From the NCBI GenBank assembly GCA_964509365.1, contig CAZDWN010000002.1, positions 231,671-295,670 of the forward strand: 64,000 nucleotides of DNA, written 5' to 3'. A program made the translations under genes and the position numbers. Origin of the DNA: an uncultured Pseudomonadales bacterium (GTDB lineage: Bacteria; Patescibacteriota; Microgenomatia; UBA1400; UBA12028). This document shows, one piece after another, positions 13,971 through 39,252 of the stretch. The notes beneath the pieces are model-generated. The model was not told the DNA's origin, did not search any database, and saw only the letters and a list, made by a program, of their open reading frames with translations. Every line of letters starts with the position of its first letter. Position 1 is the first letter of the stretch.

Positions 13971-15617
13971 CTATCCTACGAAAAAATCAGGGAAAAGAGA
14001 AGTGGTTATCTCTGACACATCGGTTCTCAGTTCTTCGACATCGTCAGTGAGCCGACCAAGGTACACTTTCGACAACGACTGAGCCAAGGCAGCTATGAGG
14101 CTCGTGTCCTTTGTATAGGTCTCGATGTCGTGTGCAGAGACTTGGTGACTGGCTCCAAAGTCTTGTAAAGACTTACGAATCATATCTGCAACAAGAGCTT
14201 GAATTGTTGTAGAGAATTCTTTTGCTCTAGTATCTTTCAGATCATCAAGAGTGAAAAATTCGACTTTCTCGGCCAATGTTACGTGGGAGGTCTCAAATGT
14301 ACTCAATAATTCTTTGTATCGACTCTTTTCGGCTGAAGTGAAGAGTCCGGTACCTATTTTCGATGGATCTGCGAAATCGCGAATTTCTTTGAGTCGTTGT
14401 ATCTCAGCCGGAAGTGAAGTAAGTATCTTAGTTGCATACGCATGTATCGACGCACCGACGCCTCTCTCCGGTACGGCCTGCAAAGATCGTATGAAATCAG
14501 CAAATTCCTCAGTACTTGGATTTGACAAGAAATCTATGCAGTCGCTCATGCCAAAAGGTAGTGCCGGACTCTCTCCACGTCGGACAGTCTGGAATTCAGT
14601 GATGATGGAGCTAAACTCATTTCGAATGGCTTTCAGCTTAGAATTCTTTTCCATGGATTTCGCTAGAAGCGACACCGCATCGCACTGCCATGAAGCTCGA
14701 TCGACCAGAAGATTTGGATTGTCACTGACCAAGGTTTCAATCACTTTTGGAAATAGCTCGCCGATAAATTCTTGACTCATTGAATCTGATACGACATGAT
14801 TCTCGCGAGTGATGAGTTTACCTAACGACTCTGTCAACGTAGATTTATGCTGAAGTTGCAAACGGCAATCACCGGAACGCACTTCTTGCAGAACCTCTTC
14901 ACATGTAGCAGGAGTCAAGGCCGTCGTAAGTATTGATGCCCGCTCGTTTTTATACAACATAGAAAGCTTTTCTTGGATTGCTTTGTCGAGTGCTTGCACG
15001 ATATCGTCTCTTTTTTCATCAATCGATGAAGCGAGCTGCGCTATCTGCGTTTCATTCCAATCTTCAGTTACATCGCCAAATCCAAAATACTCAACAAAGT
15101 CGTTTGCATTATCGCTATCCAAGTCATCCAATTCATCGTGAACTGTATTGAGCGTTTGCATGAGCACTTTCATCAATTCTACGTTCGTGACCTCAAGTTC
15201 AGGATGAAGCTCACTCTTAATTTCCCGAAAAAATTCAAGCTTCGATTCATACGCAGCATTGAAATGTTCAAGAAGATGATCACTGCATGTGGCTGAGGGA
15301 TTTTCGCAAACTGAAATCACCTCCAATGCCACTGTTTCCTTTGCGATTTGCTCATCGGAAATCAGTTGTAGCCAAACAAATGTATTATTTTCACCCATAC
15401 ACAGAAGCAATTTGCGAGATTCCTCGAAAACGTAAGTAAATTGAAGGCCTTCCCCAAACGCCTCCCGCAATAGCGCATAAATCTGGTCGAGGGTGTATCG
15501 AACGTTGCCAACTTCGAAAGTATGACAATCCACCCACAAATTATCGGCAAATAGCTTATAGAGTGGTTGCTCTTCCCAATCTTCAGTTGAACGATTGTTT
15601 TCAGTGGAATTAGGCAT
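13971..15617 (-). CDS. hypothetical acidic protein (about 548 aa from Met41) between dnaE and gatB
   Basis: Long intact ORF with no recognisable motif, in operon context with housekeeping genes. Confidence 0.5.
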   Translation of the reverse strand: MPNSTENNRSTEDWEEQPLYKLFADNLWVDCHTFEVGNVRYTLDQIYALLREAFGEGLQFTYVFEESRKLLLCMGENNTFVWLQLISDEQIAKETVALEVISVCENPSATCSDHLLEHFNAAYESKLEFFREIKSELHPELEVTNVELMKVLMQTLNTVHDELDDLDSDNANDFVEYFGFGDVTEDWNETQIAQLASSIDEKRDDIVQALDKAIQEKLSMLYKNERASILTTALTPATCEEVLQEVRSGDCRLQLQHKSTLTESLGKLITRENHVVSDSMSQEFIGELFPKVIETLVSDNPNLLVDRASWQCDAVSLLAKSMEKNSKLKAIRNEFSSIITEFQTVRRGESPALPFGMSDCIDFLSNPSTEEFADFIRSLQAVPERGVGASIHAYATKILTSLPAEIQRLKEIRDFADPSKIGTGLFTSAEKSRYKELLSTFETSHVTLAEKVEFFTLDDLKDTRAKEFSTTIQALVADMIRKSLQDFGASHQVSAHDIETYTKDTSLIAALAQSLSKVYLGRLTDDVEELRTDVSEITTSLFPDFFVG

Positions 15618-15667
15618 AACAAGTCCTAGAAGTAAAATGTGATTATACTCCAAAGATTTGACGAAGC

Positions 15668-16978
15668 TTACCTGAGTGAATCGCGAAGCGCATTCATGAG
15701 AACCGTGGTATCGACATTGCCGAGTTTCTTTTTGCACATGCCTACGAGGAAGCCAATAACTTGTTGCTTCCCGGCTTTGTAGTCAGCGACTGCTTTTGGA
15801 TTTTGTGAGATTACTTCTTGGATGGCCGCACCTAGCGTAGAGTCATCTATGGAGCTCGTTTGCGATAAATCCTTTGACGCAGCGATGAGTGAAGCGGCAT
15901 CATTCGACATCAGAATCTTTTTGTTGACGAGTTGCGTGACGAGTTTAAGCGCATCAGGATAAGATGCGAGCACTTCATCAATGATTGCTACATTGGCAGG
16001 ATCTTCCGATAGGATAGCTGCTTCGGTAGGTTTCATTCCCTTTTGGATCCACTCGGCGATCACTTGGTCAGGAAGTTTCGGCAAAGAAAGCTTCAGTTCA
16101 TCGATGTATCCTTGCGTGAAATGCACCGGTGGAAGATCGGGATCAGGGAAATATCGGTAATCTTCAGCTGATTCTTTGGACCGCTGGGCGAAGGTTTGAT
16201 TTTTGTTTTCATTCCATCCGCGTGTCTCTTGCGTCGGCAACTTAGTCATTTCACGTATTTCACTCTGACGAATCATTTCGTACGCAATTGCCTTTTCTAT
16301 GTATCGAAATGAGTTCAGGTTTTTGACCTCAACCTTGTAATCAGGAAGCTTTCCCTTTTGCCTTTCACCTTCAGTTTGTACACTGATGTTCGCTTCCAGC
16401 CGCATCGATCCTTTTTCCATGTCCGCCAGACTCACATCCAAATACTTGATGAGTTGATGGATTTTCTTGGCATATGCTTTTGCTTGCTCAGGTGAATGAA
16501 TGTCAGGTTCGGTCACAATCTCGACCAAAGGGACTGAGGATCGGTTGAAGTCAATCAAGCTTACTTTTTTTCCATCAATTTCTTGATGTGATAACTTTGC
16601 GGTATCCTCTTCCAAGTGCACACGGGTGATACGTACGTCGCCAAATTCAGTTTTCACTAAGCCTTTGACACACAGCGGCTGATCATACTGAGAAATCTGA
16701 TACCCCTTCGGCAAATCAGGATAAAAATAGTGCTTGCGATCAAATTTTGAAAACAGCGCAATTTCACATCCGAGTGCTTGACCGATCTTGATCGTCCATT
16801 CGATCGCCTGCTTGTTCGCGACTGGTAGCGCACCAGGCATACCAAGGCAAACTGAGCAGGTGTAAATGTTCGGTTCTTTGGCACCAAATGGGTCATTCAC
16901 ACATCCACAAAACATTTTACTTTTTGTCTTGAGCTCTACGTGTATTTCGATGCCGACGATGAGAGAGTACTTTGAATC
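15668..16978 (-). CDS. gatB: aspartyl/glutamyl-tRNA amidotransferase subunit B
   Basis: GIEIHVEL...MFCGC...CSVCLGMPGALP, typical of GatB. Confidence 0.9.
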   Translation of the reverse strand, partial: DSKYSLIVGIEIHVELKTKSKMFCGCVNDPFGAKEPNIYTCSVCLGMPGALPVANKQAIEWTIKIGQALGCEIALFSKFDRKHYFYPDLPKGYQISQYDQPLCVKGLVKTEFGDVRITRVHLEEDTAKLSHQEIDGKKVSLIDFNRSSVPLVEIVTEPDIHSPEQAKAYAKKIHQLIKYLDVSLADMEKGSMRLEANISVQTEGERQKGKLPDYKVEVKNLNSFRYIEKAIAYEMIRQSEIREMTKLPTQETRGWNENKNQTFAQRSKESAEDYRYFPDPDLPPVHFTQGYIDELKLSLPKLPDQVIAEWIQKGMKPTEAAILSEDPANVAIIDEVLASYPDALKLVTQLVNKKILMSNDAASLIAASKDLSQTSSIDDSTLGAAIQEVISQNPKAVADYKAGKQQVIGFLVGMCKKKLGNVDTTVLMNALRDSLR

Positions 16979-23153: not shown

Positions 23154-23804
23154 ATGTTGTTTGGAGCAAGCATCGGCTTGATCGTGTTGTTCTTGCTCGT
23201 CATTCTTCCTGCGTTCATCAAGTTCTTGGCCTTTCGAAATTTCTCATCGAAGATTACGTATTCGCAAGACAGCGTCATCACCTCCAAACCGTTTTTGACC
23301 CAGCCGTTTGAAGCGACCAACAGTGCAACTCTCAAATTAACAGGGAGCGCACAGGCAGGTCAAAAGATTGTCTTACTACAAAATGGGTCGCCAGGGCCAG
23401 AGACAAAAGCCGCTGACGATGGCTCCTTTGCATTCACAGGTGTGACACTCGAATCAGGACAGAATACATTTACGACCGTCGCACAAAATGACAACGGCGA
23501 TCGCAGTAACCCATCCAATGCGGTGGTGATCTCCTTCGTGAAAGATGCTCCCAAACTCACGGTCGACACTCCAACCAATGACAGTACGATTTCTCAGCGA
23601 AAACAAAACCCGATCACGGTCAAAGGAAAAGCTGACGTCGGTGACAAAGTGTATATTGCTGACCGACTGATCTTCGTCTCAGCGGATGGGAGTTTTACTA
23701 GTCAAGTCCAACTCAATGAAGGCGATAACACGATTACCGTCAAAGCCGTCAACGCTGCTGCAGTCGAGACTTCTCTCGATATCCTTGTGCACTTCTCGCC
23801 ATAA
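23154..23804 (+). CDS. membrane-anchored extracellular protein with Ig-like/Big-type beta domains (ORF could begin at 23100)
   Basis: N-terminal TM helix. Repeated beta-rich modules (GKADVGDKVYIADRLIFVSADGSFTSQVQLNEGDNTITVKAVN). Confidence 0.5.
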   Translation: MLFGASIGLIVLFLLVILPAFIKFLAFRNFSSKITYSQDSVITSKPFLTQPFEATNSATLKLTGSAQAGQKIVLLQNGSPGPETKAADDGSFAFTGVTLESGQNTFTTVAQNDNGDRSNPSNAVVISFVKDAPKLTVDTPTNDSTISQRKQNPITVKGKADVGDKVYIADRLIFVSADGSFTSQVQLNEGDNTITVKAVNAAAVETSLDILVHFSP

Positions 23805-24936
23805 TGACGGCGAGTATGATCAGTACAAATGGATAAAAAAACGTATTCGTAAACAATGCGTGCACCCCAACTGCCAGGAGCACCGCCTGGACCTCAACAC
23901 TTCCCTGACTTACTTTCAAAAGCTGCCATACAATGCTCAACGATATTCCCACGCCAATAACTCCTAGAGAAGTAAAGAGAAACACATACGAGTTCTCAGC
24001 TGCGCTCGAATGATTGGGGACGACCGCATTGTAAAGGAGCGTGGTAGGGTTCTGTTCCTTTTTCCAATACCACCCCTTCCCGATGACTCCATCACTTAGT
24101 GAAAACTGTGAAAAGGATCCCGTAACGCTATCAATACGTGAAACTACGCTCGCTGTACGCTCCAGTTTTACTCCTTCTCCTCCTGGTCGTGGTAAGAGCA
24201 CCATTCCGAGTAGAAAGAGCGGAAGTAAGAAGAGCACGATTTTGTTCTTGAGCTTCCATGCAAGAAGAAGTGTCATGACGAGATACGCCAGATATGAAGC
24301 TCGAGAGTACGTTAGTAAAAGTGCCACAGTCATTGTAAGCAGAAGTGTGGAGTTGACCCAGTTGCGTCTGCGAATCCACTCCACGAGTACTACCGCAATG
24401 CCAATCACCAGCATGATCCCCGTAAATCCTGGGTCAAAGAGTGTGGATATCAATCGAAAGTAGTGATCATCCCATCCCAGTAACTGCAGACCTCTGGTAT
24501 CTGGGATCGCCACATATTGGAAAAAGCCAAGTATGGCTATGAGACTTACCACAGAGACCAGCCATGTCTGGATCTCACGAGCTGTAAGTGTCTTTTCCCG
24601 AATCAGTAGATAGATGACGAGTCCAAGCGCAATAATGTTGTCTAGTCGAAGCAGATATAAACTGACGACAAGCAGTTGATGAAAGTCCGGCCAAAAATGC
24701 ATCAAACTAGTCGCGAAGATCCATGCGTTGAGTGCGACAAAGAGTTGAGCGAGTCGAGATGAGGAAAGTTGTCTCCAATTCACCTTACGATACAGCAAGT
24801 ACGTCACCCACATCATGGGTATCAGGATATCTTGAAAATAAATGGCAGTCGCACCTAACAGCTCAAATCGTCCAAATTGTCCGAGGACGAGACATCCTCC
24901 GAGTGTGAGAAACAAGATTCGAAAGTAGGATCTCAT
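23749..24936 (-). CDS. O-antigen ligase/Wzy_C family polytopic membrane protein (possible polymerase, ligase or O-oligosaccharyltransferase)
   Basis: Ten or more TM helices, with an LLTYSRASYLAYLV motif resembling the Wzy_C/RfaL signature. Confidence 0.65.
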   Translation of the reverse strand: MRSYFRILFLTLGGCLVLGQFGRFELLGATAIYFQDILIPMMWVTYLLYRKVNWRQLSSSRLAQLFVALNAWIFATSLMHFWPDFHQLLVVSLYLLRLDNIIALGLVIYLLIREKTLTAREIQTWLVSVVSLIAILGFFQYVAIPDTRGLQLLGWDDHYFRLISTLFDPGFTGIMLVIGIAVVLVEWIRRRNWVNSTLLLTMTVALLLTYSRASYLAYLVMTLLLAWKLKNKIVLFLLPLFLLGMVLLPRPGGEGVKLERTASVVSRIDSVTGSFSQFSLSDGVIGKGWYWKKEQNPTTLLYNAVVPNHSSAAENSYVFLFTSLGVIGVGISLSIVWQLLKVSQGSVEVQAVLLAVGVHALFTNTFFYPFVLIILAVIMARSAQGYREKSRLQQR

Positions 24937-25700
24937 GAGCGTGTCCTCAGTCTTTCAAGCAGTTTGATGCGAACACACAAGGAATGGAAACTCATCATCC
25001 AGGCCATGATGAGGCCAGGATATCCATCAAGCATTCCAAACCTGACAATATAGTTTTGCACAAACTTCGCTAGTGGGAATACAAAGAGCTGGAAGTACGC
25101 CGTACTTCGTCTGGCTTTACTACTTCTCTCTATGACCTCGAGCTGGGTGTAGCGATTAATCTTCTCAAAGAAGCTCTCAAGTGTCGGGTGAGGGAAATGA
25201 AGGATCTCTCCGACTAATGTGTCAGTGTGCCCGCTTATGTTCCATGTCTCATGCACTGATCGCACCCATTTGCCAGTATCTTTCCTTGCGAATCGCAACA
25301 GTTTCGTATGCGATGTTTCCCCGTAATACAGTCGCTTGCCCATAAAAAAGTCACGCCGATTGATGAAAAACCCATTCACCAGTTTGGACTCCCAGTGACC
25401 ATCAAGCAGCTCCTGACTCAACTCTTTCGTGACGACCTCATCGACGTCGACAAAAAGGATCCATTCTGTCCTGACATACTCCAGTAAGAAATTTCGCTTG
25501 TGAGAAAAGTTGATATCGGCAGGAAGTTTGATTACATCCGCGTGGTAGTGTTTTGCGATGACAATGGAGTCATCTGTTGAGTTGTCATCGCCGACAATGA
25601 TATTTTCACAAAAGTCGAGAGACTCAAGACAATGAGTGAGCGTCAATGCTCCGTTCTTACACAAGACGATCGCAGTGATATTAGTAGGCTTTGGCATAAA
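24933..25700 (-). CDS. glycosyltransferase family 2
   Basis: ITAIVLCKNGALTL...IIVGDDNSTDDS, the GT2 DxD region. Confidence 0.75.
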   Translation of the reverse strand, partial: FMPKPTNITAIVLCKNGALTLTHCLESLDFCENIIVGDDNSTDDSIVIAKHYHADVIKLPADINFSHKRNFLLEYVRTEWILFVDVDEVVTKELSQELLDGHWESKLVNGFFINRRDFFMGKRLYYGETSHTKLLRFARKDTGKWVRSVHETWNISGHTDTLVGEILHFPHPTLESFFEKINRYTQLEVIERSSKARRSTAYFQLFVFPLAKFVQNYIVRFGMLDGYPGLIMAWMMSFHSLCVRIKLLERLRTRS

Positions 25701-27168
25701 CTTTTTGACTATCAAGTTCTCGGACCCAGTACGCCCCAAGATCGATCACGTTTCCTTGGTCGATCCATCGTCGCTTGGCTTCCTCTGGTCGATCGATACG
25801 AAATCGAGCACAATCGGGACCTTGAGTCCGGGAGTCGATGGCGATGAGGTATTCCAAATGATTATAGAGTGTCGGAAAGGTCGCGTCTCGTTCAAGTGAT
25901 TCGAGTATGATGCAGCGATTGCCGGCTAATGTAAAAAGTGAGTCGACAATGTGCTGTTGCGTCCCTATGCTTGGCCCAAATCGTTTGTCACCCCAATTTG
26001 ATTCGTTTGTCTGCAGAAGAAAGAATGTATTCATTTCAAGATGCTTCGCTGAGAGTGCCAGTGAAGTGAAGAGTACCAATGTAAGAAACACTCCGACGTT
26101 TCGATTGATTTTGCGAAGCCCACTAGCGATCATCATCGTCACACTCGGTGCCAATAGCGGTATATATGCTTCCGATGGGACCCTGTGGATCACGAGTCCG
26201 ACTGCCAAGATACAGCTACTCGCACCGACGATTCGCGACAGTAGATTACTTTTTCTCCACGTCCACACACAGATGCCAGCGCAGAGGACTATGATGCTCA
26301 GCCACAGCCACTGATCCATCGCAATTCCATTTTGAGTGAAGAGCGATACAAACAGCTTGATCAAATCTTGGATTTTTGCTCCAGATCCGCCATCGGTCAA
26401 ACTATTTTTTGTAAATGGCAGCAGCGCAGTTACGATCTTATACCCCACCCAAACCGCAAATCCTCCAAGCTGAGCAAATTGATGAGTAAGGTCAAACACG
26501 ATTTGAGGAAGTAAACCGATAGCGAGTCCAAGCCCAATCGGAAGTGTCCTGACCAGTTGGGAGCGACTCGGCCACGTTTGCTTCATTTTCACGAGAGGGA
26601 TCAACAGAATGAGTGGAAAAGCCGCAAGCTCAAACTGAAACACCAGTGCAAAGGCGAGTCCTGCCCCAAAAGCCGCCCACTTCTCACCTCGTGCAAATCT
26701 GACAATTTGCCACAGGAAGATGCAGACAAACAATGGAATCGGGACGATGTGATATGGCATCCGACTGTGGAGAATCAACATGGGAAGCAGAGAAAACAGC
26801 AGTGCTGCGAGTGTAGCTGTTCTGACGGAATCATAGGTAGCGACCAGGAGATAGAGTGCGACAATTGCCGCCAGTCCAAACGCGCTTGCCAGTAGTCCCA
26901 TCGCGAGGATTGATCCGTGGCTCAGCCAATAGGTGATCGCCAAAAAGTAAATAAACAATGGACCTTGCTTGAATCTCGGGATACTTGAAGGGATGCCCAG
27001 TAACGGGACGTGACCAAGTTCGACCATCTCTTTCGCGACCAGCGCATCTCGTCCTTGGTCTCCGACAAAGATCATTTGCGACGAAATTGAGTGGACGCGA
27101 AGAACCGTCGCAAGTGCGAGGATGAGGAAGAATATCCAATGAGTCCGAATCGCAAACCAAATTCTCAT
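25681..27168 (-). CDS. GT39/GT83-like (PMT/ArnT-type) membrane glycosyltransferase
   Basis: Polytopic protein with an N-terminal loop motif FVGDQGRD, followed by a C-terminal soluble domain. Confidence 0.6.
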   Translation of the reverse strand: MRIWFAIRTHWIFFLILALATVLRVHSISSQMIFVGDQGRDALVAKEMVELGHVPLLGIPSSIPRFKQGPLFIYFLAITYWLSHGSILAMGLLASAFGLAAIVALYLLVATYDSVRTATLAALLFSLLPMLILHSRMPYHIVPIPLFVCIFLWQIVRFARGEKWAAFGAGLAFALVFQFELAAFPLILLIPLVKMKQTWPSRSQLVRTLPIGLGLAIGLLPQIVFDLTHQFAQLGGFAVWVGYKIVTALLPFTKNSLTDGGSGAKIQDLIKLFVSLFTQNGIAMDQWLWLSIIVLCAGICVWTWRKSNLLSRIVGASSCILAVGLVIHRVPSEAYIPLLAPSVTMMIASGLRKINRNVGVFLTLVLFTSLALSAKHLEMNTFFLLQTNESNWGDKRFGPSIGTQQHIVDSLFTLAGNRCIILESLERDATFPTLYNHLEYLIAIDSRTQGPDCARFRIDRPEEAKRRWIDQGNVIDLGAYWVRELDSQKVYAKAY

Positions 27169-28439
27169 ACTGATTGCTCTGCAGCTACTTGCACGAGAGC
27201 AGGATTTGGGACGGATTTACTTTTGGCTACTTTCATTGCCTGCCAGATGAAAAGCGGTTGGATCAGAAGTCTCGAGGCGACGACTGCATAGGCGGCACCA
27301 TGGAGACCAAACTGATGAGTGAACCACCACATGAGGATGAGCATCGCAGTGAGACCAATCGCATACAGCGCGACGAGCGATCGGATCCAGTTACGGGCAA
27401 GAAACAATGGATTGATAAGCGTGTCCATCCCAGTGATAAAGGCACAGATCGATAGTGGCAAAAACAACTCAAGCGACGGTCTCCACTTTTCTTTGAGTAA
27501 ATAGATCAGTGCACCCTGCACAATCGTGGTATTGAGAGCGATCGTGGGGATGAGCATCAGTACGGCTGCAGGGAGAATGAGCTTGATGACGGCCCGCTTC
27601 ATTCGATCAGGTTCGTCGACCAGTCTTCCATAGATCGGCAACAGGACTTGTGAAAATGCCGTCCCGACCTCTGCGATCAGACTGCGAGTGAGATTAAAGG
27701 CAGTTTGATAAAAGCCTAGAGCGGTTGCCCCGAGGACTCTGCCAACTATGATGTTGTCAAAATTTTGCTCTGCATACGTGATGATCCCAACTGCATTGAT
27801 CCACTTCCCTGGCGTGATGATCGCTTCATACACTTTTTTATCAAAATGAAGTTTTGGTCGTTGTTTGATGAACACAAACGAGTAGACCACTTCGGCAAAA
27901 GCCGCCAAGATCATCGCATAGATCAGACTGTCTGCATTGTGAAAGACGCGTACAAAAAGTATTGCGGAGACTGCATCGACAATGGTCAATCCAATACGCA
28001 AATATGCTTCTTTATTAAACTCAAGATTTTTGACATACATCGCCTCGGCTGGATTGATGAAACCTTTGATTACTGGGATCACAGCAGCCAGTAGCATGAG
28101 GGGAAACAACCCCTGATCATGGAAAAACACTGGAGCTAAAAATGCGAACGCAAGGAGCACAGCTCCTATCAAGAAGCCTCTCACCATGGAGACAATATAT
28201 GCAGTATCGAGGTAGTAGCTTAAGGGCTTGCTATCTTTGATCAGGACGACATTGATCCCCGTCTCTGTGAGCATCTCCAGGAGTCCGAGAGCGATGGCTG
28301 CCAGTCCAAACAATCCGACTTCACGAGGTGAGAGGTACCGATATGCAAAGAGGACTTTGGCAAAGACAATTGCTTTTGCCCCATACCGGAATGCACCGAT
28401 CCAGCCTAATCCCTTCAAGAAATCTTTTGTATACCCCAT
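27165..28439 (-). CDS. Wzx-like polysaccharide flippase (MOP superfamily)
   Basis: About 12 TM helices with a polysaccharide biosynthesis protein-like N-terminus. 4-nt overlap with the downstream GT39 gene. Confidence 0.65.
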   Translation of the reverse strand: MGYTKDFLKGLGWIGAFRYGAKAIVFAKVLFAYRYLSPREVGLFGLAAIALGLLEMLTETGINVVLIKDSKPLSYYLDTAYIVSMVRGFLIGAVLLAFAFLAPVFFHDQGLFPLMLLAAVIPVIKGFINPAEAMYVKNLEFNKEAYLRIGLTIVDAVSAILFVRVFHNADSLIYAMILAAFAEVVYSFVFIKQRPKLHFDKKVYEAIITPGKWINAVGIITYAEQNFDNIIVGRVLGATALGFYQTAFNLTRSLIAEVGTAFSQVLLPIYGRLVDEPDRMKRAVIKLILPAAVLMLIPTIALNTTIVQGALIYLLKEKWRPSLELFLPLSICAFITGMDTLINPLFLARNWIRSLVALYAIGLTAMLILMWWFTHQFGLHGAAYAVVASRLLIQPLFIWQAMKVAKSKSVPNPALVQVAAEQSV

Positions 28440-28482
28440 AGCATTGATTGTACGACAAAATAGGCTAAACTGATAAAACAAT

Positions 28483-28875
28483 ATGAAGGAACTCGACGAA
28501 AGTGCTCGGGTACGCGAGACACCACAGCACGGATGGAGATTTGGCGGTTTATCACCTGATGATCGAGCCAAACATCTTCAAGGACTACGCGAGCTGTACC
28601 GCGCTGAGTTACACAATCGCACAAATGCACTTTCTCCAGTCTCACTGCTTCTCGATACCATTTTCGAGATTTTACTCAGTACACTACGAGGTGAAGAGCA
28701 TACAAAGACATCTTCTCGGCTTTTAAGCGAGTGTGGCTTGGGAGATATTGTAATGGAGTTTCGACAGCAACTTCGTACAGAACAAATCCCAAAAAAGTTG
28801 ACCGACGAACATATGGTGCTGTTACGTGAACTTATGGAAAGTAAAGTATTTTTTATTCTTGAGGCTTTTAAGTAA
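28483..28875 (+). CDS. hypothetical protein (130 aa), the only plus-strand gene inside the glycosylation island
   Basis: Intact ORF that overlaps the 3' end of the next minus-strand gene by 8 nt. No motif I can recognise. Confidence 0.4.
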   Translation: MKELDESARVRETPQHGWRFGGLSPDDRAKHLQGLRELYRAELHNRTNALSPVSLLLDTIFEILLSTLRGEEHTKTSSRLLSECGLGDIVMEFRQQLRTEQIPKKLTDEHMVLLRELMESKVFFILEAFK

Positions 28876-29782
28876 AGCGTGCGCTTACACTCCCTAGCAC
28901 TGTCCCCCACATGACTGCGAAATCACTAACCACTTGGAGGAGAGGAAGCCAACCAAGCGCTTGCGGATCATTGACGTACCGGTAGTTTTTCTGGATAGCA
29001 TAGGCAAAGTACACAAGTAGAGCACCGATACCGAATGCCCAGTACCAGACTCCTACTGCTATTAGCAGCAGATATCGAAGATATATGGTGAGCACTTTCG
29101 GTCGAAAAGTCCGAGAATACGCATCTCCAAATGCATGCTCAAAGATCATGCGGGCAAATGCCCAGAGGTTTTTCCTCGGTCTCCACGTGACGATGGCCGC
29201 GGGCACGACGGTGATGGGTATGTGCTTCGCTTGAAGTCGCCTGGCGAACTCATAGTCTTCGGCATAGCGATAGTGTTCATTAAACGTTCCTACCTTCTCC
29301 CAAGCGGTCTTGGTGATCCCCATGCTTCGTGTTGCAGGTAAAAATGACTCGGTGTTGATCTTGTCAGGCATGACCAACACATATGGGATCTCGCACTTCT
29401 CAAATACGGATGAGTACTCCCCTTCGTAATACCCCGCGACGACATCAGATTTTTCAAAGCCTTTGATCATGTGCGCCACCCAATCAGGATGGAGGACGCA
29501 ACCCGCGTCGGTGATGAGGATATGCTCGTACGTCGCGGCCTCGATCGCTCGATTCCTTCCGACAGCTCGATTGGCACTTTGATGGAGCGTTATGATTTTG
29601 ACATCTGTACCCGATTTCTTGATCTCACTCACATCCCATGAGGCCGTGGGGAATGCCGAGTTCTCGCCAGCAACGGTGATGATGAGCTCGTCCACTTTTC
29701 GGGTTTGATTAGCAATTGAATCCAAAAGCCTGCTAATTGTTTTCGTTTCGTTTTTAGTCGTTATGATCAAGCTAATTCTCAT
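28868..29782 (-). CDS. glycosyltransferase family 2 with C-terminal TM helices
   Basis: ISLIITTKNE...ITDAGCVLHPDW, GT2 motifs. Confidence 0.7.
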   Translation of the reverse strand: MRISLIITTKNETKTISRLLDSIANQTRKVDELIITVAGENSAFPTASWDVSEIKKSGTDVKIITLHQSANRAVGRNRAIEAATYEHILITDAGCVLHPDWVAHMIKGFEKSDVVAGYYEGEYSSVFEKCEIPYVLVMPDKINTESFLPATRSMGITKTAWEKVGTFNEHYRYAEDYEFARRLQAKHIPITVVPAAIVTWRPRKNLWAFARMIFEHAFGDAYSRTFRPKVLTIYLRYLLLIAVGVWYWAFGIGALLVYFAYAIQKNYRYVNDPQALGWLPLLQVVSDFAVMWGTVLGSVSARFT

Positions 29783-29783
29783 A

Positions 29784-30797
29784 CTAATTCCATTTCCACA
29801 ATTTCTTGTACTTGAGATACACTCGATTCCACGTTTGCTGACGTGCCCATTGGTATGCATCATCAATTTGTTTTGTGTAGTCTTCGCTTTTGATCAAAGT
29901 CAGCGCTTGTTTGAGCTCAAGCTCCGAACGGACGATGACCATGTCTTGGGAGCGAGGATGTGCCATCAGGTAATCTACTTTTAGTTCGTCAGCAGCGTAT
30001 GCGACGACGAGAGTCCTGCATTGCATTGCCTCCACAATAGCCAGATAGGATGAGACACACGCGATGTCGTACTGTGGGAAAACGGCACAGCTATCGTCGA
30101 TAGTGCCAAGTTTTGACCCTGGTCCGAACATGTCCAACTGGCAATTGTCCAGTGACCTGATTACGTTCTCATAGATCCTTGCTCCCGTGTCTTGACTGAT
30201 TCTCCCGACGAAGACTCCTCTGATTTTTTTGGATTTTGGTAATTGGATTTTGAAATTTGGTAGACATTCTCCTCCTCCATACGTCACTTCGTCAGGTTTG
30301 GTGCCGTACCATTTCTCGATCCAGTATCCGACTGCCATGCTACCACTCGTCCAACGTTGGATCATCTGTCTAGTCCGCTTCGCTTTCGGATCAATGTAAA
30401 GCTCACGGCCTTCGCCCGCCGAAGTCTTGACGGAGGAGGGCTCAAAGCCATGGTACGTGATATAGACTTTTTTCCACGGAAACAGGATTCGGATTGGCCA
30501 ATACCAGAAGAAGACGTCGTGGATCTGGATGACGTCAGCTTGGATAAACGTCAATATGTGGGCCAGCATCCAGCTCCAGATCTCGATCCGTGCTTGGATT
30601 TTGCCTCCATTCGCAGTCACTCGGTGGACATTCACTCCATCGATTACTTCCTCGCTCTTAAGCTGCGAGTCGTGTTTGAGCGTGAATACGTCAACATGAT
30701 GACCGTCCTTGATCGCTTCCCTCGATATGCCAGACACATGTTTTTCTACTCCTCCGATGTGAGGGGCATACAGCCTGCATATCATTACAATCTTCAT
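29784..30797 (-). CDS. glycosyltransferase family 4 (GT-B fold)
   Basis: MKIVMICRLYAPHIGGVEKHV, the GT4 N-terminal signature. Confidence 0.7.
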   Translation of the reverse strand: MKIVMICRLYAPHIGGVEKHVSGISREAIKDGHHVDVFTLKHDSQLKSEEVIDGVNVHRVTANGGKIQARIEIWSWMLAHILTFIQADVIQIHDVFFWYWPIRILFPWKKVYITYHGFEPSSVKTSAGEGRELYIDPKAKRTRQMIQRWTSGSMAVGYWIEKWYGTKPDEVTYGGGECLPNFKIQLPKSKKIRGVFVGRISQDTGARIYENVIRSLDNCQLDMFGPGSKLGTIDDSCAVFPQYDIACVSSYLAIVEAMQCRTLVVAYAADELKVDYLMAHPRSQDMVIVRSELELKQALTLIKSEDYTKQIDDAYQWARQQTWNRVYLKYKKLWKWN

Positions 30798-30798
30798 A

Positions 30799-31602
30799 TT
30801 AGGTTTTCCGACAGAGTATTAGAATGTTATTGGGTTGCCATTTTGTTTGAAGAATGTACTTCGCAATAAATTTCTTCAAAAAGTATAACTTTGAAAACGC
30901 GTAGAAGACTTCAAAGCGCAAAATTTTAAACCCTGCAATTGTTAACTCAGCAAAAATCAATTCAGGTAGGTAGCATCGTAAATGTTCATTCGGATTATTT
31001 GGAAACATATTCTCAAGGCCTTCGTTCATTGGTACAGAAACTAGAAGATATCCGTCTTTTTTTAGCATATTGCTTAGATTCCCAAGTGCTTGGAATGTGT
31101 GTATTGGAGAAATATGTTCAAGAACCTCAAAAATACTAACAATTTCGTACGCATTTTTGTCATTTGAATGTAATCTTGCCAGAATATCTCGTTTGTCAAA
31201 TCTGAATCTAGGGAATTTCTTTGTCAATTTATCTAATGATTTTTGAGCCAAATCTACGCCCGTATGAGAGAAGTTCACATTTAATTTAGAAATCAAACTC
31301 TCAAAATTTCCATCGCCACAGCCGACATTGAGAGTAGATGCTTCTTCCGTTACAATGTCCGAAAACCACTTTGCAGCAGTATTATTTCTATCAATTTCCA
31401 TGAAGTTCTTTAGCTTTTTCTCGTGTGTGGACGAGAATTTATTGTCCCAAAAATCACCCGTATTTTTATTTTCTAGAAGTATCTTAGTCGAGTAAGTCAC
31501 TTTTAGTTCATCCAGCTTTCTATCACGAGCGAGAATGTTGCGCTTAGATTCCATTTCAAAATATCTTCGTGCATTATTTGTTATTGACATTGTTTTAATC
31601 AT
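30799..31602 (-). CDS. class I SAM-dependent methyltransferase (AT-rich gene)
   Basis: Motif [13 protein letters not shown]. The gene has a distinctly low GC content. Confidence 0.65.
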
Positions 31603-31624
31603 AGATTTAGGATCAAGCTTACTG

Positions 31625-33538
31625 ATGAGCTATATTGCGCATAGACTAAGCGTTGCAATATTATTCTTTTCACTTTTAATTTACACAACAACAAAAATTG
31701 CTTTTGCTTCAACTATTATCTTTCAAGATGATTTTAGTGCTGGCCTGACTAAATGGGAACAGACAGAATCAGATGGGACAGTTTGGTCAGTCGCTAATGG
31801 ACGAGCTTATATCTCAACGTTCGGAAGTTCGAAAATTCATCAGCTATTACCGAAAATTTCAGAATGGAACGACCATTACACCAATCTTGATATCAATTTT
31901 GATCTTCTATCCACAAGTGGCTCAGATAAGAATTTCATTCTGAGATACAGATTTCCGGATGATTTTTACGAATTACATTTCAATGATAGTGTAGTTGCGC
32001 TTGACAGAACGCTTCCTTCGAACTCATACACGGCGCCCTTCACATTTGGCAACAATCTTGAGAGACATGTGGAGGTAAAGTACCGTATTGAGTCAATTGA
32101 AGTTTTTGTTGATGGCACACTTATAGCAACAAATTTAGATGCTTCCAATCCATACAACACAGGTCGAATCGGGTTGAGAGTGGCAAATTACAATAATGTT
32201 TACTTTGACAATATTGTGGTGACGGGGGAGGATCCGGTCCCCACCCCTACTCCTAGCCCAACTCCTACCGCAGTGCCAACTACGACGCCGACAGCGACAC
32301 CAGCTCCCACCACGACACCGACTCCTACTCCAATCGTGACTGCCAGCCCGTCGCCAACACTAAGTCCGACGCCGACTCCATTGCCAACTCCGTACGTCTT
32401 TCCTGCCTTTTACCAAACAGATCCACTATGGAAGTCCGAGACTTATGACAATGCGTCGACTTGGAATCTGCTCGATCCTTCCTTCGGTCGCTGGGGGTGC
32501 GCTGTGACGTCTGCCGCGATGATCCTCAAATACTACGGCATCGCTACTTTGCCAAATGGACTTGGTACGACACCAGGGAATTTGAATGTGTGGCTGAAAT
32601 CGTATCCTGGTGGATACGTGAATGAAGGCTTGCTCAACTGGCAAGCGGTCTCAAAAGTGACTGCGCTCATGCATATTACGAATCCGTTTTGGACCAAACT
32701 CGAATATAGTTGGGGTAATGGCTCCCTCTCGGCACTTTCGACTGAACTCACCAGTGGCCGCCCCACTATCTTGCAAGTCCTCCCAGGGCATTTTGTAACC
32801 GCGTATCAGCTGGGCAGCGCAAACAAAATCGATATCGTCGACCCATACTTTGCAAAGACGACACTAGCGCAATACGGAAGTACTTTTGTCTCCATGCGAA
32901 AGTTTCAACCATCATTTACAGACTTAAGTCACTTGACGTTGTATCTGAGCGAAGATAACCAGATATCTCTGGAGCGACAAAAAGGCAACAGATTTGAACT
33001 CACGTCCGCCAATAGCTTCACGGAACAACTCTGGGGGCAGCCAGGCAATGTCCCATCGGGTCCGATCAGTCGAGTGCTCGATCTTGCCAGGCCAGAGGAC
33101 GGAAAATATCGCTACAAGTTTTCTAAAAAAACAGCAGGCATGACTCGCTTCACATATTTTTCGACGAATAGAGACGGTGAGCAAAGCAGCCAAAGTGGCA
33201 AATTACTCGTTGGCAAAGATCCAAGATACGCCACACTGACCTATGTGAAGTCAGCTACCAGCTCTGCAGAGCTATCATTCCTTGTCGACTTTGACACGCT
33301 GGACCAAGATTATGAGATCGCCAAAGTGAGCGGGGGAGTCAGACAAAAATATGACTGCAAAGATATTACGGTACTTCTCCATTTGGCAGATGCGTTCTAT
33401 CCACGCAATCGTCTAGCTTCACGGGCGGGCTTCGAGCTCTTCGTACGAGCGTATGAAGCGCAACGTTCACGGTTCGAAACTGAAGTGTACGCTCTTATCC
33501 AGCAAGATATCCTTCGAGCCAGATCTCAGCTATTCTAA
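31625..33538 (+). CDS. secreted multidomain protein: LamG/concanavalin-like domain, Pro/Thr linker, peptidase C39-like (papain-fold) domain, and a C-terminal domain (ORF could begin at 31535)
   Basis: Signal peptide [31 protein letters not shown]-rich linker ([21 protein letters not shown]...). The stretch [18 protein letters not shown] matches the catalytic-Cys region of C39 peptidases. Confidence 0.6.
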
Positions 33539-33642: not shown

Positions 33643-34389
33643 ATGCCCGAATATGGAAAAAAGACACCCGACGAAATCAAAAAAGAAATTCTCAAGCATT
33701 CACTTGAAAAGAATCCTAATATTCCGAATGTGATTGCGTCTGCCATCTTCAATGGAAGCGATCAAAAAATATACGAGTTGAACGATACAGAACTCGCTCA
33801 GCTACTGCGCACATCCCCAAAACAGAAAATAAATGAATTCTATGATGAACTTCTGCTACATCCAGAACGCTATAATGACGAGTATATCAACCTCGTTTTG
33901 GCACCGTATGGGTATTCCTCAGAAGAATTACATATTTTTTTACAAATCATTCGAAAATCAATTTCCATTCAGACTTCAGCAAGGATTCAAACGATAGATT
34001 ATGCTCACAAAAGTGCAGAAGAACTCATGCACATCGCCACTTCACCGCGCGAGCCTGCCATAGTTGAATTTACATTTTTTCATAAGGAGTTTTTACATAC
34101 AATTGGCGAACTCGCTTATATTCTGGAGCTTTGCGATGACCCAAGGACCTTTAATCGCTTAGGAATACTCCCAACAGGGATGATCAACAAACTGCTTCTC
34201 ATCGAGAGTAATGACTGGCTTCATGATCGAATCATCGCTATCCAAAAGAATATGATCACACGAGCAGAGAATGACAATATACGCAAAATTCCGAGAACAA
34301 TTACTGATCGTGAAGTCCAGTCATACCGGACGTATTTAGTAAAGGAAGCCGAAAGACTCAGCGTACTTCAGGCTCCAAAATCACCATAA
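33643..34389 (+). CDS. hypothetical protein (248 aa), AT-rich
   Basis: ORF only. Confidence 0.4.
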   Translation: MPEYGKKTPDEIKKEILKHSLEKNPNIPNVIASAIFNGSDQKIYELNDTELAQLLRTSPKQKINEFYDELLLHPERYNDEYINLVLAPYGYSSEELHIFLQIIRKSISIQTSARIQTIDYAHKSAEELMHIATSPREPAIVEFTFFHKEFLHTIGELAYILELCDDPRTFNRLGILPTGMINKLLLIESNDWLHDRIIAIQKNMITRAENDNIRKIPRTITDREVQSYRTYLVKEAERLSVLQAPKSP

Positions 34390-35594: not shown

Positions 35595-35924
35595 ATGGGA
35601 AGTAGAATTGAAAGTCTGATCCGAAAACATCATCAAGAGCAAGCGGATTCAAGATTCCGCATTGTCAGAGTGACACATGAAGTCATTCAAAAAGCCACAT
35701 ATGGAGTTTTAACTGAAAAAGAAGTGCAATTGCTTCGTAAGGAAGTACTCTTTCTCGTAAATAATGAAGCCGAAAATGTGGATCTTCCGATTAGTTCACC
35801 TAGAGCTGTACACAACGCTAGTGACGAGGTGATCGATGCAAAAAATGTATTAAAGACCAGGCCGGAAAAACAATTCGGTCCAATCATTTTCAATGCTATT
35901 GATCGAGGCATGAATAGAGAGTAG
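35595..35924 (+). CDS. hypothetical small protein (109 aa)
   Basis: ORF only. Confidence 0.3.
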   Translation: MGSRIESLIRKHHQEQADSRFRIVRVTHEVIQKATYGVLTEKEVQLLRKEVLFLVNNEAENVDLPISSPRAVHNASDEVIDAKNVLKTRPEKQFGPIIFNAIDRGMNRE

Positions 35925-35934
35925 TAACTCCGAT

Positions 35935-36957
35935 TTATCGGGATGCCAAAGTGAGATTTGGATCGCGGTCAAAGTCCAGAGAATTGGGTTCATGGTGAGC
36001 AGCGGCAATACCGATCATGGCAGCATTGTCGGTGCACAACCGAGAAGTGTAAGGGAAATAGACAGGTAGATCATGACTTTTCCCAAAGGCCCGTAGTGCC
36101 TTCCGCACTTCAAGATTTTTGATCACTCCACCTCCCACGATGATCGAGGTGAGCTCTCTATTTGCGATCGCATACTCGAGTTTCTCAGTAAGATGTTTGA
36201 TCGCGGCGGTTTGAAATGCCAGTGCGATATCAGCGATGTTTTGCCGTGTGAGGTTGGGATACGATGCGACGATCCGTGACGCTGCCGTCTTGAGTCCCGA
36301 AAAACTCATATCACTACTATGGATTTGGCGCATCGGGACCGGAAACTTCACAGCTCCCGGAGTCCCTTCCCTGGCAATCTTCTCAAGGAAAGGTCCAGCC
36401 GGATATCCGAGCCCTAGCATTCTTCCGATCTTGTCATAGGCTTCCCCCATCGCATCATCCAATGTCTTCCCCACGATCTCATACTCTCCAACCGCTTTTG
36501 CATAGACAAATTGCGTATTTCCTCCTGAAAGTATCACACCCATGATCGGAAATTGAGAATTGAAAATTGAAAATTGAGAATTCTTTCGTTTTGGCTGCGC
36601 CAAAAACGAAAGCAAGTGTCCTTCTAGATGATTGACCGCGATGATTGGCTTTTTATACTTCAGTGCCAGTTCTTTTGCTTTGGCGATGCCCACCTCCAGA
36701 CAAATCGAAAGACCTGGTCCTCGGGTGACCGCGATGCGATCGATGTCGTCCCAAGTTTTGTGAGCCCGTTTGAGCGCGAGCGCTATCACCGCATCGATAT
36801 GATCTTCATGAGATTTTCGAGCCAGTCGAGGCACGATGCCTCCATATTCCAGATGGAGTGAGAGGTCGGTTGTCAGGACATTCGAGAGGATGGTCGTGTC
36901 TTGCGTGACTGCGACGGCAGTGTCATCAAAGGAGGTGTCGATAGCGAGCATGGTCAT
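35935..36957 (-). CDS. tsaD: tRNA N6-adenosine threonylcarbamoyltransferase
   Basis: MLAIDTSFDDTAVAV...HLEGH...VILSGG, as in TsaD. The gene contains a heptanucleotide-repeat-encoded insertion KNSQFSIFNSQF. Confidence 0.85.
   Translation of the reverse strand: MTMLAIDTSFDDTAVAVTQDTTILSNVLTTDLSLHLEYGGIVPRLARKSHEDHIDAVIALALKRAHKTWDDIDRIAVTRGPGLSICLEVGIAKAKELALKYKKPIIAVNHLEGHLLSFLAQPKRKNSQFSIFNSQFPIMGVILSGGNTQFVYAKAVGEYEIVGKTLDDAMGEAYDKIGRMLGLGYPAGPFLEKIAREGTPGAVKFPVPMRQIHSSDMSFSGLKTAASRIVASYPNLTRQNIADIALAFQTAAIKHLTEKLEYAIANRELTSIIVGGGVIKNLEVRKALRAFGKSHDLPVYFPYTSRLCTDNAAMIGIAAAHHEPNSLDFDRDPNLTLASR
36549..36583. repeat. 5 x 7-nt tandem array (GAAATTG AGAATTG AAAATTG AAAATTG AGAATTC) inside tsaD
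   Basis: Direct reading of the sequence. It encodes KNSQFSIFNSQF in-frame. Confidence 0.75.
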
Positions 36958-38030
36958 ACAGTGTAGGAAATGAGGCGATCATTCTCGGCCTCACCGAGTT
37001 TGATATGCACACGGATGATTTTTGCTTGGGCCTCATATTTTTTGAAGTCATCATGGAATCGATCCGCCCACTCGAGCGCAATGACTGCATTTGTAGTGAT
37101 TGCATCATCAAGTCCGATATCAGTGAGTTCATGAAAGTGCTGAAGTTTCCAGCAGTCGATATGGACAAATGTCCCCGGCATGCTTTCATTTTCAAATTCA
37201 AATTCATTCGCGATCGCATACGTCGGCGAGCTCACCGACTCCGTGATACCCAGGCCTTTAGCAATTCCTTGGATGGCGTGCGTCTTCCCGGCCCCCATCT
37301 CACCAGAAAACAAAAAGAAGACTGGAGTGTAGGTGTAGTACGAGCGAAATCGCTTCACAAATTGGGTAAACCAGTTCACTGTCTCTTCTTCACTGTGGCT
37401 GACATACGTCTCCGATGAGACAAAGTTTGCCGCTCCTTGCCGCAGTACTTGGATATCGTCCACCGTTGTGTCGATGACCGTGCTCGGTTCATTGTGTGGC
37501 AGTTCGCCGATATCGATCACCAAATCAATGAGCGCCTGCTGCGACTGCGAAGTATTGTCGAGGATGTCTTGGATCGTGTAGGGTCGCTTTTTGTTTGAAG
37601 CATTGGCGCCAGTCGCGCTGATACCGTGTCCAAACGCAGCGATCAGAGCAAGTGCCAGATCGTGTTTTGGGATACGGATACCTATTTTCCCATCTGTAGA
37701 CGCGATGCCAGGGGCGACCACGCCGTTTCCAGTGGAGATCACTGTGACTGGCCCTGGCAAGAATCGCTCATACACACCCTCAGCAGTATGATTGAGCGAT
37801 ACATATCGCTGCGCCATTGTCTTGTCAGTGACGGCGACAGAGATTGGCTTGCCGTCTCGTTTGCCTTTGTAGTCGAGGAGTTTTTGGACCGCTTCAGAGT
37901 TTTCCACATCGACCGCGACTCCATACGTCGTCTCCGTCGGATAGATGACGATTCCTCCAGACCGCAAGACACGTACCGCTTCACTGAGAATGTCTGCTTC
38001 CTTGGTGGTTTTCGATTGGATGATCGTCAC
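36954..38030 (-). CDS. fusion protein: TsaC/Sua5/YrdC threonylcarbamoyl-AMP synthase (N-terminal) plus TsaE/YjeE P-loop ATPase (C-terminal)
   Basis: N-terminus IVIYPTETTYGVAVD, the YrdC motif. C-terminus FSGEMGAGKT...SPTYAIANEF...HIDCWKL, the TsaE Walker A and conserved motifs. Confidence 0.75.
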   Translation of the reverse strand: MTIIQSKTTKEADILSEAVRVLRSGGIVIYPTETTYGVAVDVENSEAVQKLLDYKGKRDGKPISVAVTDKTMAQRYVSLNHTAEGVYERFLPGPVTVISTGNGVVAPGIASTDGKIGIRIPKHDLALALIAAFGHGISATGANASNKKRPYTIQDILDNTSQSQQALIDLVIDIGELPHNEPSTVIDTTVDDIQVLRQGAANFVSSETYVSHSEEETVNWFTQFVKRFRSYYTYTPVFFLFSGEMGAGKTHAIQGIAKGLGITESVSSPTYAIANEFEFENESMPGTFVHIDCWKLQHFHELTDIGLDDAITTNAVIALEWADRFHDDFKKYEAQAKIIRVHIKLGEAENDRLISYTV

Positions 38031-38451: not shown

Positions 38452-38528
38452 TGGACTTGTAGCTCAGCTGGTTAGAGCGCACGATTCACATTCGTGAGGT
38501 CAGAGGTTCGATCCCTCTCAGGTCCACC
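38452..38528 (+). tRNA. tRNA-Val (anticodon CAC), CCA encoded
   Basis: GGACUUGUAGCUCAGCUGGUUAGAGC. Anticodon stem CACGA/UCGUG with loop UUCACAU. Ends in ACCA. Confidence 0.85.
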
Positions 38529-38586
38529 AAAAAAAATCGCTGTTTGGAAAATAAGACTCCAACGTCACTGTAGTATACTGACTCGT

Positions 38587-39252
38587 ATGTGCGGTGCATT
38601 TGGACTGGAATATATTTTTGATATCGGACTCGCTGAGCGATACTCCTTTACATCTTCAGAAAAAATGCTCGCCGACATCGAAGCATTTCGTTTTAATCCT
38701 CATAGTGAGATCCCCACGGTCTCCCGAAATAGCCCAAATAAGCTGGTGATGCGGTACTGGTCGATCATCCCTCCATGGATCCAGGACCCAAAGGATCTCA
38801 AATATCCTACGTTCAATGCGCGATCTGAAACCCTTCGCGAGAAACCCACCTACAAGCCAGCTTGGGACAAAGGTCAGCGATGCCTCATTATCGCCACACA
38901 ATTTTACGAGTGGCATCGAGTGTACGACAAAACCGGGAAAAAAGTGCTCCAGCGTACTCCCTACACATTTCGGGTACGCGGTGAAAAAACATTTGCGATG
39001 GCTGGACTTTGGTCGACGTGGAAAGACTTTGAATGTACGACCGTGATCACGACCGAAGCCAACAAAGAAATGGCACCAATTCACGATCGATCACCGGTGA
39101 TCTTGACGAAAGAGCAAGAAGAGGTGTGGCTTTCGCACGAGACTTTGCTTGATGATGCATATGCGCTTCTTAAACCTCCAAAAGATGGGACGCTTGAGCT
39201 ATGTGAAGGATTGCAGTCCTCCCCTTGCAACCCGTCTACGACACAGGGATAA
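38587..39252 (+). CDS. SOS-response-associated peptidase (SRAP/YedK/HMCES family, abasic-site processing)
   Basis: Begins MCGAF, so the catalytic Cys is at position 2. The SRAP fold length fits. Confidence 0.7.
   Translation: MCGAFGLEYIFDIGLAERYSFTSSEKMLADIEAFRFNPHSEIPTVSRNSPNKLVMRYWSIIPPWIQDPKDLKYPTFNARSETLREKPTYKPAWDKGQRCLIIATQFYEWHRVYDKTGKKVLQRTPYTFRVRGEKTFAMAGLWSTWKDFECTTVITTEANKEMAPIHDRSPVILTKEQEEVWLSHETLLDDAYALLKPPKDGTLELCEGLQSSPCNPSTTQG

Follow-up and report, generated by a model that had tools for sequence, protein, structure and literature searches.

The 64,000-nucleotide stretch of DNA analyzed here (the window; positions 231,671 to 295,670 of contig CAZDWN010000002.1, assembly GCA_964509365.1) encodes a modular, predicted secreted cysteine peptidase of 637 residues. 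The protein is a member of the Peptidase_C39_2 family (Pfam ID PF13529; clan CA, papain-like) and combines a signal peptide, a ConA/LamG-like β-sandwich, a Pro/Thr-rich linker, a papain-fold catalytic domain, a second β-sandwich, and a C-terminal helix bundle (Table 1). Its gene belongs to a large family of the candidate phyla radiation (CPR, or Patescibacteria), found mainly in the Microgenomates group, and is chromosomal, syntenic, and vertically inherited in CPR, not phage-borne. The favored interpretation, with an estimated probability of about 45%, is that this protein represents a lectin-guided papain-fold cysteine peptidase with a lysin- or autolysin-like action on the cell envelope. 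Glycan binding, the substrate, and the link of the protein to the neighboring glycan cluster are assigned here only presumptively.

Membership in the Peptidase_C39_2 family is established by the profile score, the ordered Gln, Cys, His, and Asp residues, and the topology of the domain. The PF13529 profile matches residues 288 to 385 with an E value of 3.8e-6 and a score of 28.0 bits, above the curated gathering cutoff of 24. The initial annotation, made by a model from the sequence alone, had compared an 18-residue segment of this protein, located at residues 288 to 305, to the catalytic-Cys helix of peptidase C39; the assignment of a C39-like papain fold holds up. The same profile is matched (E ≤ 1e-3) by 63 of the 73 relatives scanned, 10 of which also match the canonical Peptidase_C39 profile. 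Residue conservation was counted over 81 sequences, the window protein and 80 loci from species-representative genomes. Cys292, the candidate nucleophile, is part of the motif that was used in collecting these loci, whereas Gln264, His389, and Asp406 lie outside it, so that their conservation provides independent evidence. All four residues are also invariant in 29 relatives obtained in a protein search. The His and Asp partners, which had been proposed as a check on the peptidase assignment, are thus present in every sequence of the set. In the AlphaFold2 (AF2) models, with a predicted local distance difference test score (pLDDT) of >90, Cys292 opens a helix (residues 292 to 303), His389 opens a strand (residues 389 to 396), and Asp406 comes right after another strand (residues 402 to 405). 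This modeled placement of the three residues is the papain-fold arrangement. The mature protein contains only two cysteines, Cys292 and Cys578.

The order of these residues, with Gln followed by Cys at the N terminus of a helix, His, and Asp, is the same as in other PF13529 members, such as the “putative C39-like peptidase” of Bacillus anthracis (PDB ID 3ERV) and Enterococcus faecalis OG1RF_12322. Like many members of that family, the window protein is predicted to be secreted and is a stand-alone enzyme, not fused to a transporter. However, it is far larger, with five modules that include a family-specific β-sandwich and helix bundle, and has an insertion of ~27 residues that separates the Gln from the Cys. 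Sequence similarity to 3ERV is marginal (E value of 0.45 in the comparison of the family profile with PDB), and this structure is absent from the top fold matches of residues 255 to 637. No characterized PF13529 member was found in the literature searched. The same applies to Bacillus subtilis YvpB, presumably a C39_2 protein, for which the literature search returned no functional study.

Similarity to the canonical C39 domains is much more limited. The C39 domains of the PCAT/AMS ATP-binding cassette (ABC) transporters, such as ComA, LahT, and PCAT1, belong to the same fold superfamily and have the same type of catalytic residues. They reside in the cytoplasm, at the N terminus of ABC exporters, and cut double-glycine leaders. 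The window protein could be regarded as a peptidase of this bacteriocin-leader type that has separated from its ABC transporter, given the weak similarity to the canonical Peptidase_C39 profile (PF03412) around the Cys helix (E value of 0.19). This similarity amounts to 12 bits, as opposed to the PF03412 cutoff of 22, and the spacing between the conserved Gln and Cys, about 27 residues here, is about 6 in canonical C39 peptidases. Further, the cytoplasmic face of the membrane is the site of action of PCAT peptidase domains, but the signal peptide places the window protein on the other side. As stated in the initial annotation, there is no fusion to an ABC transporter; no such transporter is found in the protein itself, within ~8 kb on either side, or among the immediate neighbors of the relatives. 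A canonical C39 origin of this kind can be practically dismissed.

The N-terminal module is predicted to have the ConA-like jelly-roll fold of the CBM66 type. In the window protein, residues 41 to 199 match the Pfam domain 3keto-disac_hyd (DUF1080; PF06439), which is ConA-like, with an E value of 6.5e-4 and a score of 20.2 bits, below the cutoff of 26.8. A profile of 29 family members, when compared with PDB, retrieves the DUF1080 structures 4jqt (E value of 5e-6) and 3imm (1.2e-4), as well as CBM66 of B. subtilis levanase (4azz; 2e-4). In Foldseek searches against PDB, the full-length AF2 model (pLDDT of 84.9) superimposes on the CBM66 structure 4b1m with template modeling (TM) scores of 0.74 to 0.77; many other ConA-like structures match with E values from 1e-7 to 5e-9, and Hcn-type domains of BoNT/NTNH match with an E value of 5e-9. 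The LamG-like domain described in the initial annotation is therefore correct at the level of the fold. The N-terminal module is a putative glycan-binding module. It shares both the fold and a profile-level sequence match with the CBM66 and DUF1080 modules, but the peptidase protein itself falls below the Pfam cutoff, and certain DUF1080 proteins are enzymes, not binding modules.

The linker that follows spans 55 residues, 85% of which are Pro, Thr, Ser, or Ala. A linker of this composition had been described in the initial annotation, but with a length of 60 residues. It is disordered in the full-length model, where residues 205 to 257 have pLDDT values of <50 and form the sole low-confidence stretch. 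Sequence alignment shows that the linker is limited to the 8 closest relatives and varies in length. A single-sequence search of the PDB sequences returns only low-complexity matches to the linker. Two other database matches fall in this region and were rejected. The match to the NCBIfam TonB family, the only NCBIfam match of the protein, lies in the linker and is spurious; the only PHROG match, phrog_15511 at residues 196 to 267, lies in the same low-complexity segment and is uninformative on function.

The protein continues for ~200 residues beyond the catalytic domain, a region that was not mentioned in the initial annotation. It consists of a β-sandwich and a four-helix bundle, both modeled with pLDDT of >90 and both aligned in all full-length relatives. 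The β-sandwich (residues 433 to 545) has no Pfam match, and its fold matches to Ig-like, CopC, and DUF4425 domains are weak. In two relatives (P0023 and P0009), the region of the helix bundle matches the Pfam domain FIMAH (PF22888), with E values of 6e-10 and 0.019, respectively, whereas the window protein itself has no match to this domain. A literature search on “FIMAH” returned only fimbrial gene names.

The open reading frame (ORF) of the peptidase gene extends from 31535 to 33538 on the forward strand. The Met codon at 31625 yields the 637-residue product, which has 100% identity, from end to end, with a public protein of 637 residues (P0001). The earlier ATG at 31535 was rejected as the start: this longer version would overlap the start of the divergent methyltransferase gene (30799 to 31602), and the public protein also begins at 31625. 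The product is predicted to be exported by the Sec pathway and to reside outside the cytoplasm, as judged from its N terminus. Residues 1 to 28 form its only hydrophobic segment (Kyte-Doolittle values of >1.6 are seen only for windows starting at residues 1 to 10) and end with a signal-peptidase-type site, AFA|S(T). This bears out the signal peptide proposed in the initial annotation. The aligned relatives have equivalent N-terminal hydrophobic stretches with A-x-A-type endings.

Searched with the family profile, a set of 1.84 billion representative proteins yields 11,168 matches at E ≤ 1e-3 and at least 1,222 clusters at E ≤ 1e-30. Nearly all of the best 150 matches are ~600 residues long and align with the profile from end to end. 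In a genome scan, which identified 217 relatives, nearly all informatively named records come from metagenome-assembled genomes (MAGs) of Patescibacteria/CPR. The named relatives include Woesebacteria, Levybacteria, Pacebacteria, Gottesmanbacteria, Roizmanbacteria, other Microgenomates, and a small number of Parcubacteria. The isolated exceptions, titled Woesearchaeota and Acidobacteriota, are each a lone short contig. The relatives are already named “C39 family peptidase” at NCBI, and a secreted C39 peptidase has been listed, with no assigned role, in a closed Microgenomates genome (PMC7143001). Many third-party annotation (TPA) MAG records that contain a family member (e.g., loci L007, L008, L010, and L011) are titled “uncultured Pseudomonadales” or “uncultured Gammaproteobacteria.” These titles look like placeholders or mislabels, as the gene content and the closest named relatives are those of Patescibacteria, and they were treated as unreliable. 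Two copies of the gene are present on the same strand of one Levybacteria contig, ~1.5 kb apart (L020:4340-6355 and L020:7839-9809), whereas the window has a single copy.

Within this family, the N-terminal module is exchanged, while the core that consists of the C39_2 domain, the β-sandwich, and the helix bundle remains constant. Among the 73 relatives scanned, the N-terminal module is 3keto-disac_hyd (PF06439) in 12 and Laminin_G_3 in 6 (both at E ≤ 1e-3). Other variants include Kelch propellers in 9 relatives, GH130-like propellers in 4, a PQQ propeller, and Ig-like domains.

The peptidase gene is transcribed divergently from a cluster of seven genes on the reverse strand (23749 to 31602), with ~22 bp between the two annotated starts. 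This cluster encodes an S-adenosylmethionine (SAM)-dependent methyltransferase, a family 4 glycosyltransferase (GT4), a GT2, a Wzx-type flippase (Polysacc_synt_3), a PMT_2 (GT-C) enzyme, another GT2, and Wzy_C, an O-antigen ligase/polymerase-like protein. The conserved divergent methyltransferase/glycosyltransferase neighborhood was not mentioned in the initial annotation. A methyltransferase on the opposite strand occupies position −1 in 28 of the 66 relatives (42%), compared with 13 of 836 (1.6%) at all other positions. GT4 is found at position −2 in 18 of 61 relatives and GT2 at position −3 in 10 of 56. On the other side, position +1 is occupied by the tRNA enzyme Dus in 21 of 76. The methyltransferase pairing persists across the classes of N-terminal modules and at loci where the downstream side has changed. 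In the two closest relatives, whose peptidases are 63% and 55% identical to that of the window, the methyltransferase found in the same divergent position (L001:5144-5899 and L007:6001-6750) is only 17 to 18% identical to the window version, whereas it is 52% identical in the more distant relatives L002 and L009. This looks like an in-place displacement of one methyltransferase type by another. Seven loci have neither a glycosyltransferase nor a methyltransferase within three genes. At nine loci (L016, L021, L027, L042, L051, L058, L080, L082, and L086), the methyltransferase is replaced by a 466-residue SBP_bac_5 solute-binding protein encoded directly upstream on the same strand; all nine retain Dus directly downstream. 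In one close relative, the gene beyond GT2 (L001:1-3136, reverse strand) codes for an α-2-macroglobulin-family protein of at least 1,675 residues with Hint/intein-type matches (PT-HINT and Vint).

Table 1. Coordinates (in the window) and supporting evidence for the peptidase gene, its domains and candidate catalytic residues, and adjacent genes
Feature	Coordinates	Strand	Evidence
Peptidase gene, whole; predicted secreted modular C39_2-type cysteine peptidase, 637 aa	31625..33538 (stop codon included)	+	ORF, identity to P0001, Pfam, AF2
Predicted signal peptide, aa 1-28, cleavage at AFA|ST	31625..31708	+	Sequence rules
ConA/LamG-like β-sandwich, aa 29-202, DUF1080/CBM66-like, putative glycan-binding module	31709..32230	+	Pfam (below cutoff), profile vs PDB, Foldseek
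Pro/Thr-rich linker, aa 203-257, disordered	32231..32395	+	Composition, pLDDT
Papain-fold Peptidase_C39_2 catalytic domain, aa 258-432	32396..32920	+	PF13529 above cutoff; AF2 secondary structure
Gln264, candidate oxyanion-hole residue	32414..32416	+	78/78 covering sequences; invariant in both alignments (A1, A6)
Cys292, candidate nucleophile	32498..32500	+	79/79, but Cys is part of the collection motif; one of two Cys
His389, candidate general base	32789..32791	+	81/81, outside the search motif
Asp406, candidate third triad residue	32840..32842	+	81/81, outside the search motif
Conserved junction motif P-S-F-T-D-L-S, aa 429-436	32909..32932	+	P429 in 74/81; D433 as D or N in 81/81; S435 in 80/81
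Conserved β-sandwich, aa 433-545	32921..33259	+	Strands within 436-540, pLDDT >90; aligned in relatives
Four-helix bundle, aa 546-637	33260..33535	+	Helices 556-568, 579-591, 596-612, and 619-636 (AF2)
248-aa orphan ORF in hypervariable slot, not part of the system	33643..34389	+	Self-match only; no family; positional counterparts unrelated
Class I SAM methyltransferase, conserved divergent neighbor	30799..31602	-	Methyltransf_23/12/25 matches
Rest of surface-glycan cluster: Wzy_C, GT2, PMT_2 (GT-C), Wzx flippase, GT2, GT4	23749..30797	-	Pfam

The proposed mechanism would proceed as follows. After removal of the signal peptide, the ConA-like (DUF1080/CBM66-type) module would dock the enzyme on an envelope glycan, and the flexible Pro/Thr linker would supply reach. 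The catalytic domain would then cut a peptide or isopeptide bond, with Cys292 serving as the nucleophile, His389 as the base, Asp406 orienting the His, and Gln264 forming the oxyanion hole, whereas the constant β-sandwich and helix bundle could provide a rigid pedestal or an interaction module. The likeliest substrates would be envelope peptides, either the stem peptides and cross-links of peptidoglycan or wall-associated proteins, and the targeted wall might be that of the cell itself, in autolysin-like remodeling, or that of an attached host cell.

The lysin-like interpretation is suggested, in the first place, by the combination of a swapped targeting module with a fixed catalytic core, which is the pattern of targeting-domain exchange in lysins and autolysins. 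It also draws on fold matches of the phage wall hydrolase type and on the known roles of related domains. Full-length Foldseek searches gave N-domain (ConA-like) matches only, and a second AF2 model was therefore made for residues 255 to 637 (pLDDT of 93.4; predicted TM score [pTM] of 0.90). Its best viral fold matches are a phage tape-measure fragment and a φ29-type “morphogenesis/wall hydrolase” fragment (E values of 1.2e-4 and 1.8e-4, probability of 1.0, 182 to 198 columns), both with automatically assigned names and with the aligned query residues not visible. Catalogs of lysins from phages that infect Gram-positive hosts include Peptidase_C39_2 and C39-like domains among the catalytic domains (PMC3314691; bioRxiv 2021.02.23.432618), and the C39-like fold of B. 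anthracis is also listed among them. In methanogens and their phages, pseudomurein endoisopeptidases of the C39 type cut isopeptide bonds in the cell wall, and in a related C39-like protein from methanogens, A0A126R2S0, the C-terminal catalytic domain is combined with a wall-binding domain at the N terminus (PMC13642728). The position of the peptidase gene next to a conserved envelope-glycan cluster is consistent with an envelope target.

Several observations weigh against this interpretation. The names of the viral fold matches are automatic assignments, and in PDB, the top fold match of residues 255 to 637 is a weak one to a papain-like protease toxin (9l5u; E value of 9e-3), not to a wall hydrolase. 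Neither the protein nor the list of families matched by its relatives includes a LysM, SH3, SLH, PG_binding, or CW_binding domain. When 50,697 phage genomes were searched by tblastn with the catalytic domain, no match was obtained, nor did any PHROG lysin family match. The single stand-alone C39-like protein to have been studied biochemically showed no activity toward peptides of the wall (PMC13642728), and this CPR family has no experimentally characterized member. The conserved neighborhood also includes Dus; with a tRNA enzyme conserved there, part of the synteny reflects simple vertical inheritance. Phage lysin cysteine-peptidase domains, such as the “C39-like” N5 domain of mycobacteriophage LysA, the Peptidase_C39_2 enzymatically active domains, and the pseudomurein endoisopeptidases (e.g., PeiR), likewise combine a papain-fold C39-like domain with other modules outside the membrane. 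The window protein, however, has no detectable sequence similarity to phage proteins, its binding module is ConA-like instead of a known wall-binding repeat, and its gene is chromosomal, syntenic, and vertically inherited. By analogy, it might work like a peptidoglycan hydrolase but cannot be filed as one.

The competing roles differ mainly in the nature of the substrate. The initial annotation had proposed a free extracellular protease, tethered to a lectin-like module, that processes surface proteins or acts on another cell. In the first of these roles, the enzyme would cut secreted or surface proteins or peptides, such as pilins, S-layer or adhesin precursors, or signaling or bacteriocin-like peptides after export, with the lectin-like module holding it at the surface. 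The C39_2 membership with its complete Gln/Cys/His/Asp set would suit such a role, as would the matches of some relatives to canonical Peptidase_C39, the weak resemblance to the 9l5u protease toxin, and the secreted Microgenomates C39 peptidase mentioned above. On the other hand, there is no conserved adjoining gene that could code for a substrate, and no ABC exporter is seen nearby, although double-glycine precursors were not searched for. Exchange among N-terminal modules of the carbohydrate type is more in keeping with a target that bears glycans than with one protein as the only substrate. A processing protease appears to be a possible, though less likely, alternative.

Another candidate role is that of an extracytoplasmic partner of the divergent glycan pathway, whereby the papain-fold domain would have as its substrate the methylated glycan or glycoconjugate that the methyltransferase/GT4/GT2/Wzx/Wzy/PMT_2 cluster produces. 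It might trim this product, transfer or anchor it through an acyl-enzyme in a transpeptidase- or transferase-like reaction, or process a glycoprotein with glycosylated Pro/Thr-rich segments. The enrichment of the opposite-strand methyltransferase at position −1, its ordered cassette with GT4 and GT2, the survival of this pairing through changes of the N-terminal module and of the downstream side, and the very different methyltransferase that holds the same position in the closest relatives all point in this direction. So do the PMT_2 GT-C enzyme and Wzx flippase of the cluster and a report that a C39-like archaeal protein is weakly active on aryl galactosides (PMC13642728). However, that glycosidase rate is very low, and no precedent for such chemistry of PF13529 was found in the literature searched. 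The loci that have the solute-binding protein instead, or that lack both transferases, also speak against a partnership. As the loci are related by descent and Dus, equally conserved on the opposite side, has no plausible functional link to the peptidase, the adjacency may be inherited; it is suggestive of coupling, not proof of it. On balance, this role is quite unlikely.

Somewhat less unlikely, but still improbable, is a combined possibility: a CPR-specific envelope enzyme functionally coupled to the divergent methyltransferase/GT4/GT2 (Wzx/Wzy, PMT_2) pathway, with the lectin or propeller module reading the methylated surface glycan of its own lineage and the papain-fold domain cutting or transferring peptide-linked material there. 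If true, this would make the family a glycopolymer-guided autolysin or a sortase-like glycoprotein-processing enzyme, a role not described for C39-like domains.

The 248-residue ORF immediately downstream of the peptidase gene had been put forward in the initial annotation as a possible partner or inhibitor. It lies on the same strand after a gap of 104 bp, and each of the three closest relatives has an ORF of 216 to 229 residues in this slot, between the genes for the peptidase and Dus (L001:8025-8678, L002:7975-8625, and L007:8745-9434). However, among 5.8 billion proteins, this ORF has no homolog but itself, and it matches no Pfam, NCBIfam, or PHROG family. Pairwise comparison shows no relationship of the slot ORFs of the close relatives to this ORF and essentially none among themselves, and a survey of the +1 neighbors shows that the slot is empty in many relatives, where Dus directly follows the peptidase gene. 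Finally, the ORF has no export signal, whereas the peptidase is predicted to be exported. The slot is hypervariable and does not hold a conserved partner, which makes a dedicated partner, inhibitor, or immunity protein highly improbable.

Several other genes of the window merit a comment. A predicted fused Sua5/YrdC (TsaC)-TsaE gene (36954 to 38030, reverse strand), deduced from the Pfam domains of the syntenic L001 and L002 genes (PF01300 and PF02367), overlaps the stop codon of the TsaD gene (35935 to 36957, reverse strand) by 4 bp. The longest ORF of the SRAP-family gene (38494 to 39252, forward strand), which starts with GTG at 38494, overlaps a tRNA gene (38453 to 38526, forward strand), so its actual start is probably further downstream. 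Neither the 588-residue ORF next to the gene for the DNA polymerase III α subunit (13971 to 15737, reverse strand) nor the 109-residue ORF after Dus (35595 to 35924, forward strand) has a Pfam match.

The proteins described here form a large CPR subfamily that is uncharacterized, yet it is an ordinary part of a known and catalogued peptidase superfamily (PF13529). What the analysis adds is the delineation of the five modules and the catalytic residues, the recognition of the true conserved neighbor, and the rejection of the proposed partner; it does not reveal a new kind of system. The CPR/Patescibacteria are mostly uncultured episymbionts, in which the building of the envelope and the contact with the host are little understood. 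In these organisms, an exported cysteine peptidase that is widely conserved, exchanges its glycan-type targeting modules, and is encoded next to surface-glycan genes makes a reasonable candidate for the remodeling of walls or for attack on the host surface.

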